Below are positions 6,782 through 13,490 of a stretch of DNA of 64,000 bases, one piece after another. Below the pieces are notes generated by a model. The model saw only the letters and a program-made list of their open reading frames with translations, was not told where the DNA came from and did not search any database. Numbering within the stretch: position 1 is the stretch's first letter; the number at the start of each line of letters is the position of its first letter. A program made the translations under genes and the position numbers. Where the stretch lies: sequence record PV730300.1. One strand, given 5' to 3'. Origin of the DNA: a phage.

Positions 6782-6803
6782 AGGGCAGAAATGCCCTTTT
6801 TAT
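6782..6803 (+). terminator. Rho-independent terminator after tail tube gene
   Basis: agggca-gaaa-tgccct hairpin (GNRA loop) followed by ttttt. Confidence 0.7.
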
Positions 6804-6819
6804 CATTAGAGAGGAAAAT

Positions 6820-7302
6820 ATGTCACAAGAACAAGATAACACAATTCAAAAATATGCTCGACCAGAAGAAGTAGTTGAGATTCCGTTAGATGGAAACAGA
6901 TCTGTTACTTTCCGTATTATGAAGTGGAGTCCATCTAAAGTGTTTGACAGGATTCCAGAATTGGGTAGTGTTCTGGTTGTTCCTATGACTATGTATAGCA
7001 CAGCAACAATGTCCGCAGACGAAGACCTTGAGTCACGTATTGCTATGGCACTGATCCAACTTTTTGCGGGTTTGGAAGAAAAGAATTTAACTGTCTTTTT
7101 GCGTAAAATTTTAGATGAGGTTTATACTCAAGACGGTTATAACGTTGCAGAAAATTTTGATGAATTATTTATGGCTCACCCAGAACTAGTGTTAGATCTT
7201 ACTGCTAAAGTTCTGGAGGTAAACTACGGCCCTTTTTTCAAACGAGGTTTCGGAAAACTGTTCACACAGCTTCAGGCGATGACGAGTTTAGCAGCAAATT
7301 AA
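6820..7302 (+). CDS. Tail assembly chaperone (gpG-like)
   Basis: 160 aa acidic ORF upstream of the tape measure region; contains slippery heptamer near its 3' end with an open -1 frame continuing to 7568. Confidence 0.55.
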   Translation: MSQEQDNTIQKYARPEEVVEIPLDGNRSVTFRIMKWSPSKVFDRIPELGSVLVVPMTMYSTATMSADEDLESRIAMALIQLFAGLEEKNLTVFLRKILDEVYTQDGYNVAENFDELFMAHPELVLDLTAKVLEVNYGPFFKRGFGKLFTQLQAMTSLAAN

Positions 7303-7568
7303 CACCTGCGATTGAACATGCTATCGACACAGCAACGAAAACCCTTACTTTGAAGTGGTATGAGGTTATTCTTTGCAAAGTCGTTAAAGATACCTCGGAA
7401 ACACTGAAAACATTGGATAACTACGGTGTAGATTATCTTTTAAAACTATATGAGTATTTAACATACGAAGAGTATGTTGAAGCCATGTATGTTAAAGACA
7501 CTTCAATAAAGAGAAAACATCAAAACCAAACAAATAAAATGTCAGATTTGTTTAAGAAACTTGTTTGA
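6820..7568 (+). CDS. Tail assembly chaperone G-T fusion product via -1 frameshift at 7233-7239
   Basis: Predicted fusion of about 250 aa (G frame to 7239, then -1 frame to 7568); conserved position immediately upstream of tape measure gene. Confidence 0.45.
7233..7239 (+). other. Programmed -1 ribosomal frameshift slippery site (T TTT TTC)
   Basis: Zero-frame codons CCT TTT TTC (7231-7239) give heptamer U UUU UUC; the -1 frame is open from 7209 to a stop at 7566-7568. Confidence 0.5.
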
Positions 7569-7593
7569 CTTTAAAACGTCACGGTGGTATACT
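7565..7593 (+). promoter_or_regulatory. Sigma70-like promoter candidate (TTGACT-N17-TATACT) upstream of endonuclease-like ORF
   Basis: -35 TTGACT 7565-7570, 17-nt spacer, -10 TATACT 7588-7593; followed by GGAGG SD (7610-7614) and ATG 7621. Confidence 0.45.
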
Positions 7594-7620
7594 TCTTTTA
7601 TTGAATAGAGGAGGAACATC

Positions 7621-8937
7621 ATGCGTGGCGTTTTAAATATTATAGGTCAAGACCCAAACAATCCAGACAAAATTCTGGTTACATGCTCTATCTGTTCAGA
7701 AGATAAAGAACTTTATCCTCAACCTTTCAGCATGTTCAAAAGTAACTTTGGTAGGCAAACACCTTGTGGTTGCTCAAAATGTCCAAAACTAAGTGAAGAT
7801 CAAGCCTACATTGTAGCAAAGAGAGCTACAGAAGCTTTAGGATACACTTTTTTAGGTTGGAGTAAAGAATACACAGGCTCAAGTTCTACAAAAATCCGTT
7901 GTGTTTGTCCTGAACATGGGGAATGGAACACTGGTATAATTTCAACGATTCGGAAGGGTGTGGGTTGTCCAAAGTGTGTAGATCCTAGGAAAAGAAAAGA
8001 TTTAGTAAAAGCTGAAGATTTCTTGGCAACAGGCTTCTTTGAAGATGGGACTACTTTTACCAAATCTGAAAGAAAAGATAAAAATGGTTGGAGTCCTTAT
8101 TGGTTTGTTACCTGCCCTACATGTTCAAATGATAAGTTTGTAAAAGCTGGACTTTGCTCTGGTATCTTTGAAGGCATGAAGTCTAATCTTTTGAAGGGTG
8201 CTAAACCTTGTCGTTGTTCTTCAAGGTATGTATACACTGAAGAGCAATATATTTTACGAATTAACACTGAAACACCTTATAGCTTTATTCGTTGGATTGG
8301 GAAGTTTAAAGGTAATCGCTCAAAAGTTGTAGTTTTTTGCGAAGAACATGGCGGTGAGATAGAGATGACTGTTTTTGGTTTGTTATCGGGAAACCGTTGT
8401 ATTACTTGTCACGGACACAAACCGAAACCAGAGACTGACATGAAAGAACAATTGAAAAAGGTTTGTGAGGAACGTGGATACACTTTTGTAAAGCTTATTG
8501 ATTACAAATCAAATAAGAGTTCTTTTCAATACTCTTGCAAAACCCACGGCATCCAACAAATATCAATCACAAACTTTATACACGGTGAACAAGGTTGTCC
8601 AGAATGTAGAGGTAAAAATCAGACCTATGCTTATATTCACCTGGTGGAAGATGAGGGTCTTGGTATTATTGGTCTTAAATTTGGAATAACAAAAAATCCA
8701 AGAATAAGAATAAGGCAACAGAATCGACTTGCTAAATATAAACTACGCAAGTTTAAGTTATATAGATTTGAAACTGTGGCAGCTTGTCGCACCGCAGAGA
8801 AAGAAGTGAAAGACGTTTTACCTTGCGGAGTTTTCTCCCAACAAGACATTCCAGACGGGTGGACAGAGACAACTTATATCTACAACCTGGAAAACATTAT
8901 GAAAATCTTTGAAGATAATGGAGGAATACTTTGTTAG
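7621..8937 (+). CDS. Homing-endonuclease-like protein: five tandem zinc-ribbon modules plus C-terminal T5orf172 (GIY-YIG-like) domain
   Basis: Repeated Cys-pair modules (TCSICS...TPCGCSKCPK; IRCVCPEHG...GVGCPKCV; FVTCPTCS...PCRCS; VVFCEEHG...RCITCHG; YSCKTHG...GCPECRG); C-terminal YAYIHLVEDEGLGIIGLKFGITKNPRIRIRQQN matches the T5orf172 pattern as I recall it; strong SD; lies just upstream of a group I intron core. Confidence 0.6.
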   Translation: MRGVLNIIGQDPNNPDKILVTCSICSEDKELYPQPFSMFKSNFGRQTPCGCSKCPKLSEDQAYIVAKRATEALGYTFLGWSKEYTGSSSTKIRCVCPEHGEWNTGIISTIRKGVGCPKCVDPRKRKDLVKAEDFLATGFFEDGTTFTKSERKDKNGWSPYWFVTCPTCSNDKFVKAGLCSGIFEGMKSNLLKGAKPCRCSSRYVYTEEQYILRINTETPYSFIRWIGKFKGNRSKVVVFCEEHGGEIEMTVFGLLSGNRCITCHGHKPKPETDMKEQLKKVCEERGYTFVKLIDYKSNKSSFQYSCKTHGIQQISITNFIHGEQGCPECRGKNQTYAYIHLVEDEGLGIIGLKFGITKNPRIRIRQQNRLAKYKLRKFKLYRFETVAACRTAEKEVKDVLPCGVFSQQDIPDGWTETTYIYNLENIMKIFEDNGGILC

Positions 8938-8989
8938 AAATTAACGCCTTAACTTAGGGGCTAATGTGTAGTGATACACATTATCAACT

Positions 8990-9250
8990 TTGTGAATTGC
9001 TGGGACACCCTTAGAGCCACACTACCACTGCGAATCGAAAGATGAAGCCACGGTTTGAAAAGTGTGTGGATTGGGTAATCAGCAGCCAAGCTCCGTTTAG
9101 GAGAAGGTTCAACGACTATCCCGTAAGGGAGTAGGATCAAGTGGTCCGAAGCGCAAAGCGTCTCATGTAGATGAAGATATAGTCTAATCTGTAGGGAAAC
9201 TTACAGCAGCGAAAGCGGGGAAGAATTAACGAATCTTCCCGAATACAATG
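8990..9250 (+). ncRNA. Group I intron catalytic core (P3-P9)
   Basis: Recognisable conserved elements: P-like aattgctgggaca (8996-9008), Q-like aatcagcagcc (9077-9087), R-like gttcaacgactatc (9107-9120), S-like aagatatagtct (9174-9185); gactat/atagtc give 6-bp P7; GNRA-loop hairpins at 8964-8981 (GTGA) and 9189-9206 (GAAA); no long ORF. Confidence 0.7.
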
Positions 9251-9264
9251 CAAAAATTAGTAAC

Positions 9265-11220
9265 GTGGTTACGTTTAAGGTGGACAAGAACAGTCTCAAG
9301 GAAGCAAAAGATGCCGTGTTGAGTGTTCAGAAGTTTGCAAATAAAATGCAACCCACTATGAACATGACCAAGTTTAGACAACAAATGAAAGAGATTGAGC
9401 GTGAACTTAAGAAAGCTCAAACTCAAAGTCAAAAACCTATGCGAGCACCTACTCCCGCTGGAGCGGGTGCTCCTGTAGGTGGATCTGGCAGACCTAGAAC
9501 TCCTAAAACCCCGCAAGGAAGAGAAGAAGAAAAAGCTCGTAAAGCGGCTGAACGCGAAGCTAAAGCAGCAGCACGTAGGGAAGATTTAGGTAATCTTCGT
9601 TTGCAGAACTTTAACTACCGAGCAAAAGCATTTAGTAAAGCCAGTCCTGGCGCTATGCAAGAAGCTAGAGACGTTATGGGTAAAGCTGTAGAGCAATATA
9701 AGAAGGGTGAAATAACTCTTCAACGTATGAACCAAGCTCTTGCTCACCAGTTAGATGCTTTACGCAGATCTCATCGTGAAAAGAATGCTGAAATAGAAGA
9801 CGAGGTTCGCGGTCGTCGCCGTATTCGTAGAGAGCTAGAAGCAGAAGCTAAAATGCGTATACGTATGCGAAACCGTGAACTTAGAGATATAGAACGCAAC
9901 CGTAAGCGTGAATTAGCTCAGCAAAAACGTGATCGTGATCGTCGATATGGACAATTAAAAGAAGGTGCAGCAGGTCTTAATCCACGCATGATTGCATCCT
10001 CTTTGATAGGTGCTGGACTGTTTGCAGGTGGTTCTGTAGTTGGTAACACTTTGATGAATACTAACGAAAGAATTAAAATGGTTAGTCGCGGTGCTGAAAA
10101 CGTCCAAACGAATGCTAACTCTATTTTAACAATGACCGCATGGGGTGAACAAAACGGTGTAGACTCGGCAAATATCATTAAAGCAATAGATAACATTAAA
10201 GACGTTCGTGAACGTCTAGGTAATACCATGATGAACACCAAATGGAACGCAAAAGAAGGGAAATGGAAAGGTGGTGATAACGGTATTACTGATATTATGA
10301 ATGCTTTTGGTTGGAACCCCGATCAAATAAAACATTTGCAAAATGACCCGTTAGCTTTTATCCAAGCCACTGTTAATGAAGGCGAACGTCGAGGCATGAA
10401 CTCTGCTCAAATCGGGCGACTTCTTGAAAACCTTGGTGATGACCTTATGCACTACCAACGTATGTTTAGTAAAAACGGCGAAGGGTATAACGAAGTATTG
10501 AAAATGCTTCAAAGAACAGGTGCAACATTAACTCAAGAACAAATAGATGCTTCTAAAGAGTTTACTCGTTTTGCTGCAACAGTTCAGCTTGTAGGTCAAG
10601 GTATGCAGAACCATTTCCTGGAAGGTTTTGTAAAAGCTTTACCTAAAGATGATTCTTGGTTGGATAATGTTAAAGTGCTAGATCAGTTCGCCAAAGATTT
10701 AGGTGAAGAACTTGGTAAAACAACAGTTCAACTTGGTGGTTTTGCTAAAGAATTGGGAGATGGTTTCGGATCTTTTACCAATTGGCTTAAAGAAACATTC
10801 CCCGATACCTTCGGAGACAACACAGATCCTAATAAATCTATGGCACAAAAAGCATATGAGGCAACGCAAAGTGGAGACAGTAACCCTGTAGCAGATTGGT
10901 TGTACAATTTAACAGGTATTGATACACAAGATATTGGTCGTATGTGGAGAGGAGAGCAAACAAGGACACGTGCTTTTGGATTTGGTAATCCTCTTGAGGA
11001 TTTACGTGAATCAGCCTATACACCTAACGTAAGTTTGGCTCGTAATCAACCTGTTGTTGAGAATACGGTAGCAATACCAAGTGATCTTATCAAAGTTACG
11101 ATCAGCCCTTCTTCCGAGTTTGGAAATATTCTTGATGCAAGAATTCAAAACAGCGGAAATAGCATTTTCCAACGTTTGTCTCTTTCAACTCTAAGTGGAC
11201 AATCTAACACTGGTGGTTAA
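9265..11220 (+). CDS. Tail tape measure protein (probable 3' exon; true 5' end unresolved)
   Basis: 651 aa, charged helical N-terminal region, follows the chaperone frameshift pair; listed GTG start has no SD and the frame opens only at 9175 inside the intron core. Confidence 0.6.
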   Translation: MVTFKVDKNSLKEAKDAVLSVQKFANKMQPTMNMTKFRQQMKEIERELKKAQTQSQKPMRAPTPAGAGAPVGGSGRPRTPKTPQGREEEKARKAAEREAKAAARREDLGNLRLQNFNYRAKAFSKASPGAMQEARDVMGKAVEQYKKGEITLQRMNQALAHQLDALRRSHREKNAEIEDEVRGRRRIRRELEAEAKMRIRMRNRELRDIERNRKRELAQQKRDRDRRYGQLKEGAAGLNPRMIASSLIGAGLFAGGSVVGNTLMNTNERIKMVSRGAENVQTNANSILTMTAWGEQNGVDSANIIKAIDNIKDVRERLGNTMMNTKWNAKEGKWKGGDNGITDIMNAFGWNPDQIKHLQNDPLAFIQATVNEGERRGMNSAQIGRLLENLGDDLMHYQRMFSKNGEGYNEVLKMLQRTGATLTQEQIDASKEFTRFAATVQLVGQGMQNHFLEGFVKALPKDDSWLDNVKVLDQFAKDLGEELGKTTVQLGGFAKELGDGFGSFTNWLKETFPDTFGDNTDPNKSMAQKAYEATQSGDSNPVADWLYNLTGIDTQDIGRMWRGEQTRTRAFGFGNPLEDLRESAYTPNVSLARNQPVVENTVAIPSDLIKVTISPSSEFGNILDARIQNSGNSIFQRLSLSTLSGQSNTGG

Positions 11221-11227
11221 TAAAATA

Positions 11228-11254
11228 CCTCGCTTCGGCGGGGTTTTTTCGTTT
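11228..11254 (+). terminator. Rho-independent terminator after tape measure gene
   Basis: cctcgc-ttcg-gcgggg hairpin (UUCG loop) followed by ttttttcgttt. Confidence 0.65.
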
Positions 11255-11257
11255 CCC

Positions 11258-11287
11258 TTGACACGAAGTTTCTATATGTGTTACAAT
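11258..11287 (+). promoter_or_regulatory. Sigma70-like promoter candidate (TTGACA-N18-TACAAT) followed by leader hairpin
   Basis: Perfect -35 TTGACA 11258-11263, -10 TACAAT 11282-11287; 7-bp hairpin ggaagat/atcttcc plus tttt at 11298-11320 in the leader. Confidence 0.4.
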
Positions 11288-11346
11288 AATCAATATGGGA
11301 AGATCTTGCATCTTCCTTTTGGCATTATCATTACTACGAGGTTATC

Positions 11347-12054
11347 ATGGCAGCAATGACTCCACAACAGTCGGTGAGAGCCGTCTATAAGGCAGAACAG
11401 GAAATCAACTCTACCGAGAATAAAAATACCTCGGCATCTACCGTAAAGGGTGATAATGGTTTCTGTATTTTAGCAAGTGTTTATAATAGTTCAAGCGATC
11501 AATACATTCAAAACTTTAAAGCAATTACTTTCGATTCAGTCCCTGAAATAGGTGTAACTCGTGAAGCAGATGTTACAAGTTTTCCTGTGGAATCAGGATC
11601 GGATGTAAGTGACCACGTTCAAATAAAAAACAACAGATTTAAACTTTCAGGTATAATTACCGAAACACCAATTCGGCTTATGCGAGATCAATTATACAGT
11701 GCAGGTGTAAATGGGGCAAGGATTTCTCAAGCAATAGAATATCTAGATCAAATATTTGAGTCAAGACAACCAATAGTTCTTTTGACAGAACACAGAACTT
11801 TTGAAAATGTTATTCTCAAAGGCTACTCTTATGATTATAAATCTGAATTTGCTATGCAATTTGATTTAGAGTTCGAACAAATCCGTCTAGTCTCTAAGGC
11901 CACCACTAACGCTATCGCTGTAAAAACAGCACCAAATAAGTCAACTGGTGGTGATGTGAAAGGACAAGTTCCATCTGGCGGTCCTAAAGTGGATAACCCA
12001 ATTACAAGAAACACTGCGTCATCTACTGGAACACCAACTAATACGGGGAATTAA
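11347..12054 (+). CDS. Tail / baseplate structural protein
   Basis: 235 aa ORF immediately after tape measure gene with AGG-rich SD. Confidence 0.4.
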   Translation: MAAMTPQQSVRAVYKAEQEINSTENKNTSASTVKGDNGFCILASVYNSSSDQYIQNFKAITFDSVPEIGVTREADVTSFPVESGSDVSDHVQIKNNRFKLSGIITETPIRLMRDQLYSAGVNGARISQAIEYLDQIFESRQPIVLLTEHRTFENVILKGYSYDYKSEFAMQFDLEFEQIRLVSKATTNAIAVKTAPNKSTGGDVKGQVPSGGPKVDNPITRNTASSTGTPTNTGN

Positions 12055-12056
12055 TA

Positions 12057-12470
12057 ATGGCAACATATTCTAAGACAACCCGATCTACAAGCAACTCTGG
12101 TTATAGTGCAGTATATTTAGAAGATCATTCAACATACTTTGCGTGGTATTTGAAAACAGAGGAATATCCAGATCAAACTTATACGGTAACTTTAGATGGG
12201 GTTGATTACGACATTCGTTTAAGGTGGAACACTAGGGACGAGTCTTGGCAATGTCAAATAGGGCTGTCTGGAGACGATCCAAGTATTACTTTTAAAGTTA
12301 CAAATGGTTTAGATCTTCTTAAACCTTATAAATATCTTGAAAGTGTGCCAGATGGTCAATTATATATAGTAGATACAGTCAAGATTAATGGTCGTCCTGG
12401 GTATACAACTACAGGTCGAGATAAACGTTTTGTATTGGTTTATATTGATAACAAACCTAATCAGGCGTAA
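12057..12470 (+). CDS. Tail / baseplate structural protein
   Basis: 137 aa ORF, tightly coupled to neighbours. Confidence 0.4.
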   Translation: MATYSKTTRSTSNSGYSAVYLEDHSTYFAWYLKTEEYPDQTYTVTLDGVDYDIRLRWNTRDESWQCQIGLSGDDPSITFKVTNGLDLLKPYKYLESVPDGQLYIVDTVKINGRPGYTTTGRDKRFVLVYIDNKPNQA

Positions 12471-12479
12471 GGAGATAAT

Positions 12480-13490
12480 ATGGCAGAAAGAGAGTATACA
12501 AAAGCTCCTGCCCCTAATTTAAACAGGGCATACAAATTATTAATTGGTTCTGCCACAAACACAATACAGAAGAGAACTAAGAACTCGGCATTTAAATCTA
12601 CAGTAGATTTGGATACCAAGTTAGGGACAACAGAAAAATCCTCTTCTAATTTGTATTTGTTGCAAGACCATCAAATAACCTTCAGTATTAAGAAAGATAA
12701 TAACAAAGATCCTAACCAAGCAGAGATTGTAGTTTATAACCTTTCGGATGATACTGTTAACTATATAAACCGTGGTATCCGAAATAACTTGGCTGTTGCT
12801 TTAGCGGTAGGATACGAAGGTGAAGAGTTGGTTATGATCTTCAAAGGAACTATCCAGTGGGTTAGTGATACTTTTGACTCGGTAGACAGGAAAACCACTT
12901 TACACTGTTTAGATGGCGGTATTAACATTGCAGAAGCAAGAACAAGCCGCAGTTATCCAAAAGGAACTAAAATAAAACGTGTTGTGACAGATTTAGTAAA
13001 GGATTTAGGAACTACAGAAGGTAATATACACGTAGATAATGATCAAACCTTATCCTCAGCAACAGCTATGTGTGGAAACACTTCACATTACCTAGAACAT
13101 ATTTGTAAAAGTATTGATCACAATGTGTCAATACAAGATGGATCTGTTTATGTCACTCCTCGTTCACAAATGTCTAGTGCACGTAGCGCCTATATTAGCC
13201 CTGAAACTGGTCTGATAGGAAGTCCAGAACCATTCCACAACGATATAAAACCTACTAAAAAAGTTACCAAGTCCTCTAAGAAGGCAAAGAAACCTACAGA
13301 TGGTGTTAAATTCAAATGCCAAATGAATGGTGCAATATTACCAGAAAAAACAATCTGGTTAAAAAGCCGAGATTATGATGGTCCATTTAAAGTTGTTTCT
13401 GTTTCTCACAATGGTGATAAAGAGGGTAAAGAGTGGGTTACTGAAGTGGAGTGTGTATCCGTGTCTGAAATAATGACTAAGGAGAAATAA
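12480..13490 (+). CDS. Baseplate hub-like protein
   Basis: 336 aa ORF directly upstream of the spike gene; position-based call. Confidence 0.4.
   Translation: MAEREYTKAPAPNLNRAYKLLIGSATNTIQKRTKNSAFKSTVDLDTKLGTTEKSSSNLYLLQDHQITFSIKKDNNKDPNQAEIVVYNLSDDTVNYINRGIRNNLAVALAVGYEGEELVMIFKGTIQWVSDTFDSVDRKTTLHCLDGGINIAEARTSRSYPKGTKIKRVVTDLVKDLGTTEGNIHVDNDQTLSSATAMCGNTSHYLEHICKSIDHNVSIQDGSVYVTPRSQMSSARSAYISPETGLIGSPEPFHNDIKPTKKVTKSSKKAKKPTDGVKFKCQMNGAILPEKTIWLKSRDYDGPFKVVSVSHNGDKEGKEWVTEVECVSVSEIMTKEK

Follow-up and report, generated by a model that had tools for sequence, protein, structure and literature searches.

How does translation of a tail gene begin when its open reading frame (ORF) opens only inside a ribozyme? 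The tape-measure gene of the phage in sequence record PV730300.1 raises this question. The window analyzed is the whole stretch of 64,000 nucleotides (nt), and all positions are counted along it. The contiguous tape-measure ORF is open from 9175. The in-frame stop before it, TGA 9172–9174 (frame 1 mod 3), which a first-pass annotation had already recorded, belongs to the ribozyme, being located in the P8/P7-3′ "S" part (GAUGAAGAUAUAGUC) of the Rfam group I match at 8938–9206. The reading favored here, with a probability of about 0.9, is that the gene is split by a group I intron without an ORF, 19 nt after its start codon, TTG 8931, with a free-standing endonuclease gene upstream. At the level of primary structure, comparison with intron-less relatives shows the gene structure, the exon–intron borders, the restoration of the frame, and the intactness of both elements (Table 1).

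Start codon and exon borders of the tape-measure gene

The candidate starts within the contiguous ORF are poor. With the 17 nt before each candidate paired to the 3′ tail of 16S rRNA, the earliest start-type codon (GTG 9265) has no Shine–Dalgarno (SD) sequence (+1.0 kcal/mol), nor has the in-frame ATG 9346 (−0.5 kcal/mol); GTG 9280 gives −2.2 kcal/mol and neighboring genes about −6.5. Because of this poor pairing, the contiguous ORF is left without a credible start. For the gene the statement does not hold: the first-pass annotation had overlooked TTG 8931 with its GGAGG. Its deduction that a group I intron breaks the gene and that an upstream exon is required was correct.

The Escherichia phage nepoznato (Phapecoctavirus, a phAPEC8-like myovirus) matches all of 6800–11300 with 97.3% identity. 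About 60 further Phapecoctavirus records match at 96%–98% identity and cover only 63% of that region, in two pieces, which span 2858 nt in the relatives versus 4501 nt in the window. The window and nepoznato thus carry 1643 extra bases, made up of an endonuclease cassette and the 301-nt intron. The genes follow one another as sheath, tube-like protein, tail assembly chaperone, the insert, tape measure, and baseplate.

In the 63 intron-less Phapecoctavirus records used for comparison (phAPEC8, ZCKP1, and others), the tape-measure gene begins TTGTTAGAAATTAACGCCT|CCAAAATTAGT. In phAPEC8 and ZCKP1, the DNA reads ...GAGGAACATACT TTGTTAGAAATTAACGCCT CCAAAATTAGTAACGTGG, with the codons TTG TTA GAA ATT AAC GCC TCC AAA ATT AGT AAC GTG GTT after GAGGAACATACT, and that TTG is the annotated start. 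The window has an identical TTGTTAGAAATTAACGCCT at 8931–8949, abutting the intron: directly after 8949 comes TAACTTAGGGG..., where the Rfam group I match starts. On the 3′ side of the intron, the window contains CAAAAATTAGT and reads CAAAAATTAGTAACGTGG from 9251; there CAAAAATTAGTAACGTGGTT resumes, straight after ...GAATACAATG. From the alignment to the intron-less starts, exon 1 is thus 8931–8949, the intron 8950–9250, and exon 2 begins at 9251. The 5′ splice site would then fall between U8949 and U8950, within the interval (8930–8960) foreseen by one of the two models of the first-pass annotation. Since the intron must end in G and a one-base shift gives Cys, no other placement of the borders works. 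A 5′ site shifted to after GCC was rejected: the intron would end in A, and Cys would replace the conserved Ser.

The predicted spliced junction is AACGCCU|CAAAAAUUAG (GCCU|CAAAAA). The spliced message would read TTG TTA GAA ATT AAC GCC TCA AAA ATT..., with TCA (Ser) versus TCC (Ser) in the intron-less phages. Its product has 662 residues and aligns without gaps to the 662-residue protein of phAPEC8, with 646 identical positions and the same first 60 residues. The length of the intron (301 = 3 × 100 + 1) moves the reading from frame 0, that of TTG 8931–8933, to frame 1, that of the contiguous ORF. It is because of this shift that no upstream continuation was seen in the tape-measure frame.

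The pairing of GGAGG 8920–8924 ahead of TTG 8931 ranks among the best 0.8% of the positions sampled between 5000 and 16000. A TTG TTA GA(A/T) AT(T/A) AAC start is found also in three more distant lineages, phi92 (Justusliebigvirus), Pseudomonas phage PsgM04F, and Klebsiella phage phi1_175008, with GGAGG or GAGG 7–8 nt before the TTG and a homologous site in phAPEC8. In all three, protein homology runs from residue 1 and the MLE/DIN N terminus is kept; the phi92 record itself annotates a ribosome-binding site (RBS) for the tape measure. In nepoznato, GTT stands at the position of GTG 9265, which therefore cannot be a conserved start. These comparisons identify TTG 8931, served by GGAGG 8920–8924, as the predicted point where tape-measure translation begins.

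The other model of the first-pass annotation had exon 1 begin at ATG 7621, with a 5′ splice site at ~7632 and the endonuclease ORF in frame inside an intron of ~1.6 kb (a mitochondrial-type architecture). ATG 7621 does lie in the same absolute frame as the tape-measure ORF and exon 2, and it has a very strong RBS, with the strongest SD of the region (−12.0 kcal/mol). In related jumbo-phage introns of RNA polymerase (RNAP) genes, moreover, an endonuclease ORF lies between the exons and ends at the 5′ edge of the core. A 6-bp complement, ggcgtt 7627–7632 with aacgcc 8943–8948, is likewise present. However, this complement is without a U•G pair and its guide would be exon sequence: aacgcc belongs to the end of exon 1, and its last three bases, together with U8949 and U8950, pair with GGGGC 8957–8961, so that the complementarity stands and the splicing role does not. 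Intron-less tape-measure genes start with TTGTTAGAAATTAACGCCT, and their genomes have nothing like ATGCGTGGCGTT. The same 19 nt are intact directly 5′ of the ribozyme, where they take part in a P1 that contains a U•G wobble; the long frame is broken by TAG 8935 and TGA 9172; and 7567–~8920 is a separate insertion in the spacer. The model is refuted, and we leave it practically no probability.

Table 1. Features of the tape-measure locus (MFE, minimum free energy; MFE folds are of 8931–9270)
Feature	Position	Strand	Remarks
Endonuclease cassette, ~1.35 kb, in the chaperone-to-tape-measure spacer	7567–8920	+	Alignment versus phAPEC8/ZCKP1/anhysbys
Promoter-like TTGACT-17-TATACT (with TG)	7565–7593	+	10/12 consensus match only; absent from intron-less relatives
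Endonuclease SD GAGGAGG	7608–7614	+	−12.0 kcal/mol to the anti-SD
Endonuclease gene (predicted), 438 residues, free-standing	7621–8937	+	Five CapR-type zinc-finger repeats and a putative C-terminal T5orf172 (GIY-YIG-like) domain
Tape-measure SD GGAGG	8920–8924	+	6 nt before TTG, within the last endonuclease codons; −9.3 kcal/mol
Tape-measure exon 1 (predicted), TTG + 5 codons + 1 base (M-L-E-I-N-A-S...)	8931–8949	+	Equals the first 19 nt of the annotated phAPEC8/ZCKP1 gene
Group I intron (predicted), ORF-less, 301 nt, P7.1 + P7.2 (IA-like)	8950–9250	+	Rfam RF00028; terminal G 9250
TAG stop in the exon-1 frame, P1 loop	8955–8957	+	TTG TTA GAA ATT AAC GCC TTA ACT TAG
Tape-measure exon 2 (predicted)	9251–11220	+	Stop 11218–11220; Ser codon T8949 + C9251 + A9252
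P1	8946–8950/8957–8961	+	MFE fold
P2	8962–8970/8975–8983	+	MFE fold
P3	8988–8994/9152–9158	+	MFE fold
P4	8997–9003/9079–9085	+	MFE fold
P5	9007–9010/9073–9076	+	MFE fold (P5/P5a)
P7, pseudoknot, GACUA/UAGUC	9114–9118/9180–9184	+	By eye from sequence and Rfam alignment, not from fold
P7.1	9119–9122/9127–9130	+	By eye from sequence and Rfam alignment, not from fold
P7.2	9134–9138/9143–9147	+	MFE fold
P8	9159–9163/9169–9173	+	MFE fold
P9	9189–9195/9200–9206	+	MFE fold
P9.2 hairpin	9218–9224/9234–9240	+	MFE fold

The ribozyme and its conservation

The match to Rfam RF00028 (cmscan) at 8938–9206 scores 92.9 bits (E = 1.4e-22; gathering score 50) and covers the full model, 1–253. The elements of the catalytic core (P3–P8, P4/P6, the P3/P7 pseudoknot, and the R/S elements) are present, with GUUCAACGACUA and AAGAUAUAGUC. 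P6 is taken from the consensus fold of the intron alignment. The P7.1/P7.2 hairpin pair is typical of the IA subgroup, which includes the T4 introns. On its coding strand, the intron has no ORF of at least 40 residues, and a search of the window turned up no other group I intron.

In P1, the internal guide GGGGC 8957–8961 is paired to GCCU, the last bases of exon 1, together with U8950; U8949•G8958 is a wobble, and U8950 stands opposite G8957. The wobble in P1 and the terminal G of the intron agree with the borders, which the intron-less alleles fix independently. The register of P1 in the Rfam alignment has two noncanonical pairs and was replaced by the register with U8949 opposite G8958.

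The nearest relatives of the ribozyme are RNAP-gene introns of Litunavirus (YH6, LP14, phPLST) and of jumbo phages (HPP-Temi, PhiPA3, 2050HW), which are 70%–78% identical to the window intron over the P3–P9 core and have compensatory changes in common. Over seven sequences (the window and six related phage introns), 31 of the 55 predicted pairs are compensatory, and these fall in P3, P5, P5a, P6, P7.1, P7.2, P8, and P9. Between the window and nepoznato, a single nucleotide of the 301 differs, in a GNRA tetraloop (GUAA ↔ GAAA). The synonymous divergence of the adjacent ORF is 3.7%, a rate at which ~11 changes would be expected in the intron; the single change seen argues that the RNA is constrained. 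On this structural model, the 301-nt group I intron is predicted to self-splice.

The late transcript would carry the endonuclease gene, exon 1, the intron, and exon 2, possibly together with a transcript from the promoter-like site of the cassette. The ribozyme would cut after U8949 and join U8949 to C9251 behind the terminal G9250, and ribosomes would initiate at TTG 8931 on the ligated RNA. Read from the TTG, the unspliced RNA gives an 8-residue peptide only; with TAG 8955–8957 following after eight codons, ribosomes would not enter the ribozyme core. An early in-frame stop that keeps ribosomes from the core is common in phage introns.

In the MFE fold, exon 1 also pairs with exon 2 (8933–8942, GUUA and AAUU, with 9255–9264, AAUU and UAAC). 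The imperfect inverted repeat between the exons occurs in the intron-less start region as well; it may be due to chance or may aid the approach of the splice sites.

If no splicing took place, the protein would be made on unspliced RNA from GTG 9265, GTG 9280, or ATG 9346, and the intron-like RNA would be a relic or a leader. Such a view has on its side the ORF, open from 9175, and the RefSeq record of nepoznato, where the tape measure is annotated from the equivalent of 9280. The protein would, however, lose 11 to 38 residues, depending on the start, from an N terminus conserved in four lineages; none of the three codons has an SD, and the first of them is not kept in nepoznato. The ribozyme is intact, with covariation in its favor and a higher conservation than at synonymous sites; exon 1, the SD, and the TTG are perfectly kept. 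This alternative to a split gene is highly improbable. Both the RefSeq and the GenBank records of nepoznato use the internal GTG (L002 2681–4621), 21 residues short, with the intron and exon 1 unannotated.

The endonuclease cassette and its possible link to the intron

The cassette replaces ~10 nt of spacer. In phAPEC8, the spacer (TAATCCAACAC...) lies between a chaperone frameshift ORF and the tape-measure RBS; the right border is fuzzy within GAGGAA 8921–8926. The last endonuclease codons, GGA GGA ATA CTT TGT TAG, traverse the tape-measure RBS and TTG, and the endonuclease stop (TAG 8935–8937), which overlaps the TTG, comes 12 nt before the 5′ splice site. The −35 hexamer TTGACT of the promoter-like sequence is assembled across the insertion junction; the number of consensus promoter matches across the region is not above chance. 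On the left, the cassette starts exactly at the stop of the frameshift ORF (TAA in phAPEC8, TGA in the window; 7565–7570).

The CapR profile (PF21817) matches the predicted protein in five stretches with 156 bits (cut-off 24.2). DUF723 matches as well, and PHROG 681 ("endonuclease") does so at 1e-89; a search of NCBIfam gave nothing useful. Paralogues of full length and 36%–39% identity occur in phi92 (gp222), Klebsiella phage KP2025, Pectobacterium phage DU_PP_I, and nepoznato (gp115), and two of them exceed the T5orf172 threshold in the aligned region (20.2 and 23.7 bits). Invariant and motif-like in five homologues are Y338, I339, K353, G355, I356, R363, E393, G413, and E416. Homing endonucleases of the T5orf172 family carry CapR, DUF723, or DUF4397 zinc-finger domains as "beads on a string" (Barth, Dunham and Seed 2023, PMC10448857). 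By its domain matches, the 438-residue ORF is a predicted T5orf172/CapR-type homing endonuclease, located outside the intron. Between the window and nepoznato, the ORF has 10 synonymous and two nonsynonymous changes (ratio of nonsynonymous to synonymous rates, dN/dS, about 0.05; p = 6.5e-6), which indicates a gene maintained by purifying selection. No second copy was found in the window. At about residues 212–275, the protein has one CapR-type repeat more than the proteins of phi92, KP2025, DU_PP_I, and nepoznato gp115, which fits a gain by recombination, as described for the T5orf172 family.

A separate insertion lies on either side of the retained 19-nt exon, the cassette on the left and the intron on the right; an ORF-less intron thus stands beside a free-standing endonuclease gene. 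Both are found in the window and in nepoznato, and both are missing from all four intron-less relatives aligned. In all 38 other listed records, the match spans 2857–2859 nt, which leaves room for neither insert. The uninterrupted junction from the start to the intron site (70 nt) occurs at ≥95% identity in 63 records and at ≥99% in 48. An exact-pattern scan with the exon-1/intron junction gave no match in IMG/VR, and neither IMG/VR nor metagenomes yielded further carriers; the pattern of the empty site matched a single IMG/VR contig, an intron-less one (L004). A metagenome match (L005) was discarded as due to chance, since only an 18-mer is common to both and it lies within an unrelated coding region.

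The sole exon substitution specific to the intron carriers is 9252 C to A, at the second base of exon 2 (synonymous, TCC to TCA). This change could add a P10 pair, A9252–U8955, could blunt recognition by the endonuclease, or could mark co-conversion. Besides 9252 and the spacer at 7567–7570, no co-conversion tract is visible; the flanks are ~99% conserved among the relatives.

This arrangement suggests collaborative homing. In intron-less relatives, the endonuclease would cut the uninterrupted start region or the site of intron insertion; repair from the carrier genome would copy the endonuclease gene and the intron together; and the intron, by interrupting the target, would shield the carrier genome from cleavage. 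From our analysis, we put the chance that the endonuclease cuts the empty start region, and that the intron is copied along and protects the carrier, slightly above even. A more elaborate version appears unlikely, though worth stating: the endonuclease would recognize a stretch of ~40 bp with the RBS, the TTG, and the intron site, the intron would be the immunity element, and splicing, initiation, and termination would be mechanically coupled, with the ribozyme gating tape-measure synthesis. The distance of P1 from the TTG and from the endonuclease stop, in each case within one ribosome footprint, would allow such a coupling.

With the same gene structure, the two elements could also be independent passengers. 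The endonuclease would then target another nearby sequence, for example the spacer that its own insertion disrupted, and the intron would have been co-converted or left behind by endonuclease turnover. Beside the nearest intron relatives, the endonucleases are HNH/NUMOD, unclassified, or absent, and are not of the T5orf172/CapR family; the histories of ribozyme and endonuclease therefore appear separate, as either collaborative homing or turnover expects. Paralogues of the endonuclease occur in intron-free settings, for example beside an ATPase gene in phi92 and nepoznato, and free-standing endonucleases of T4 cleave some way off from their own genes (PMC2988022). Turnover, in which an intronic endonuclease is lost and a free-standing one gained, was proposed by Barth et al. 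(PMC10448857). Yet the elements have just 12 nt between them, separated alleles are missing from the records examined (63 with an empty site, two of nepoznato, and the window), and the carrier-specific exon change falls at the intron insertion site. We regard independent passengers as possible, with odds somewhat below even.

Several points weigh against the split gene and the collaborative homing proposed above. The same missing alleles, with the endonuclease or the intron alone, count here too, and with only two carriers, close relatives of each other, the co-occurrence amounts to about one evolutionary event. The uninterrupted start region is a putative target, and the T5orf172 match of the window protein, at 17.0 bits, falls short of the 20 bits that Pfam sets as cut-off. 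As to splicing, at most two P10 pairs are possible by eye (A9252–U8955 and A9253–U8954). Since the TTG and its SD are within a ribosome footprint of P1, splicing could face competition from initiation on unspliced RNA. Finally, we infer splicing, the junction, and the use of the TTG from comparison and structure alone.

Two patches of the window have lower identity to nepoznato (86.6% at 10001–10500 and 87.2% at 12001–12500) versus 95%–98% to the intron-less ZCKP1/anhysbys. They point to mosaic recombination in the tape-measure gene and the downstream baseplate gene, with the cassette present on two backbones. The ORF of the tail assembly chaperone (6820–7302) has a slippery run, C CCT TTT TTC, at 7230–7239, with the −1 frame open at 7209–7568. 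The run looks like a G/GT-type programmed frameshift, and ORF 7350–7568, a separate hypothetical protein (gp105) in the annotation of phAPEC8, is probably the frameshift extension of the chaperone. In nepoznato, the annotation breaks the gene for the large terminase into two parts with an HNH endonuclease gene in between (L015 3553–6597), and nrdD into three (L016 37473–41546). No further RF00028 match at threshold occurs in the rest of nepoznato, terL and nrdD included; BLAST had listed "2 places."

Comparison with known systems

In the literature searched, no mention was found of an intron in Phapecoctavirus. The arrangement of a free-standing endonuclease gene beside an ORF-less intron is already known from other phages; the present case is unannotated in public records. 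It resolves the paradox of an essential tail gene seemingly without a start and corrects the public annotation. The locus illustrates the arrangement cleanly, in a genus of coliphages (phages of E. coli K-12) with therapeutic use, with a rare occupied allele and many empty ones. Its geometry is extreme, with a first exon of 19 nt, an endonuclease stop over the start of the host gene, and P1 within the ribosome footprint of both. Since phages of E. coli K-12 with empty alleles are at hand, it would offer a convenient system for studying collaborative homing by enzymes of the T5orf172 type; the literature searched gives no description of where these enzymes cleave.

The self-splicing group IA2 introns of T4 in td, nrdB, and sunY (I-TevI, I-TevII, and I-TevIII) also interrupt protein-coding genes, contain P7.1 and P7.2, have an early in-frame stop, and are associated with a GIY-YIG-related endonuclease. 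In T4, the endonuclease ORFs lie within peripheral loops of the intron and exon 1 is long; in the window, by contrast, no ORF lies within the intron and the splice site follows just 19 nt into the gene.

The RNAP introns of Litunavirus and the jumbo phages differ in host gene and have HNH/NUMOD or unclassified endonucleases within them or between the exons. In 2050HW (L025 2463–3449) and PhiPA3 (L026 1562–2554), the RNAP beta exons are separated by an HNH/NUMOD ORF, whose end comes ~45 nt and ~15 nt, respectively, before the BLAST match to the core of the window intron. The order, endonuclease and then core, is that of the window, but the nuclease belongs to an unrelated family and the exons are arranged differently.

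Collaborative homing is described for the psbA intron of S-PM2 with F-CphI (Zeng et al. 2009) and for T3/T7-like phages (Bonocora and Shub 2009), as far as the summaries in PMC3984707 and PMC2988022 go. According to those summaries, the proposed logic is the same, the endonuclease cutting the empty intron site and the intron conferring immunity. They place F-CphI in a different family (Endo VII-like) and give, for both pairs, an experimentally mapped cleavage site, unlike the putative one here.

The closest parallels come from the Vibrio phage ICP1. Its tape-measure gene is also interrupted by self-splicing introns tied to homing endonucleases, but there are three of them, with HNH-3 endonucleases inside, in another lineage and at other positions (PMC10448857). 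In terL of ICP1, a T5orf172 endonuclease gene stands by a short exon for the N terminus and an intron without an ORF, an arrangement read as collaborative homing (PMC10448857). The terL case differs in its host gene, a terminase gene instead of a tape-measure gene, and in that splicing was confirmed by RT-PCR (reverse transcription and polymerase chain reaction), whereas here splicing is predicted from the sequence; a first exon of 19 nt and an endonuclease stop over the start codon of the host gene are particular to the present locus. In both, an endonuclease of the T5orf172 type (here a predicted one) with CapR-type repeats is encoded outside the intron, by the short exon 1 of an essential late gene, and in both that first exon was overlooked by annotation pipelines.

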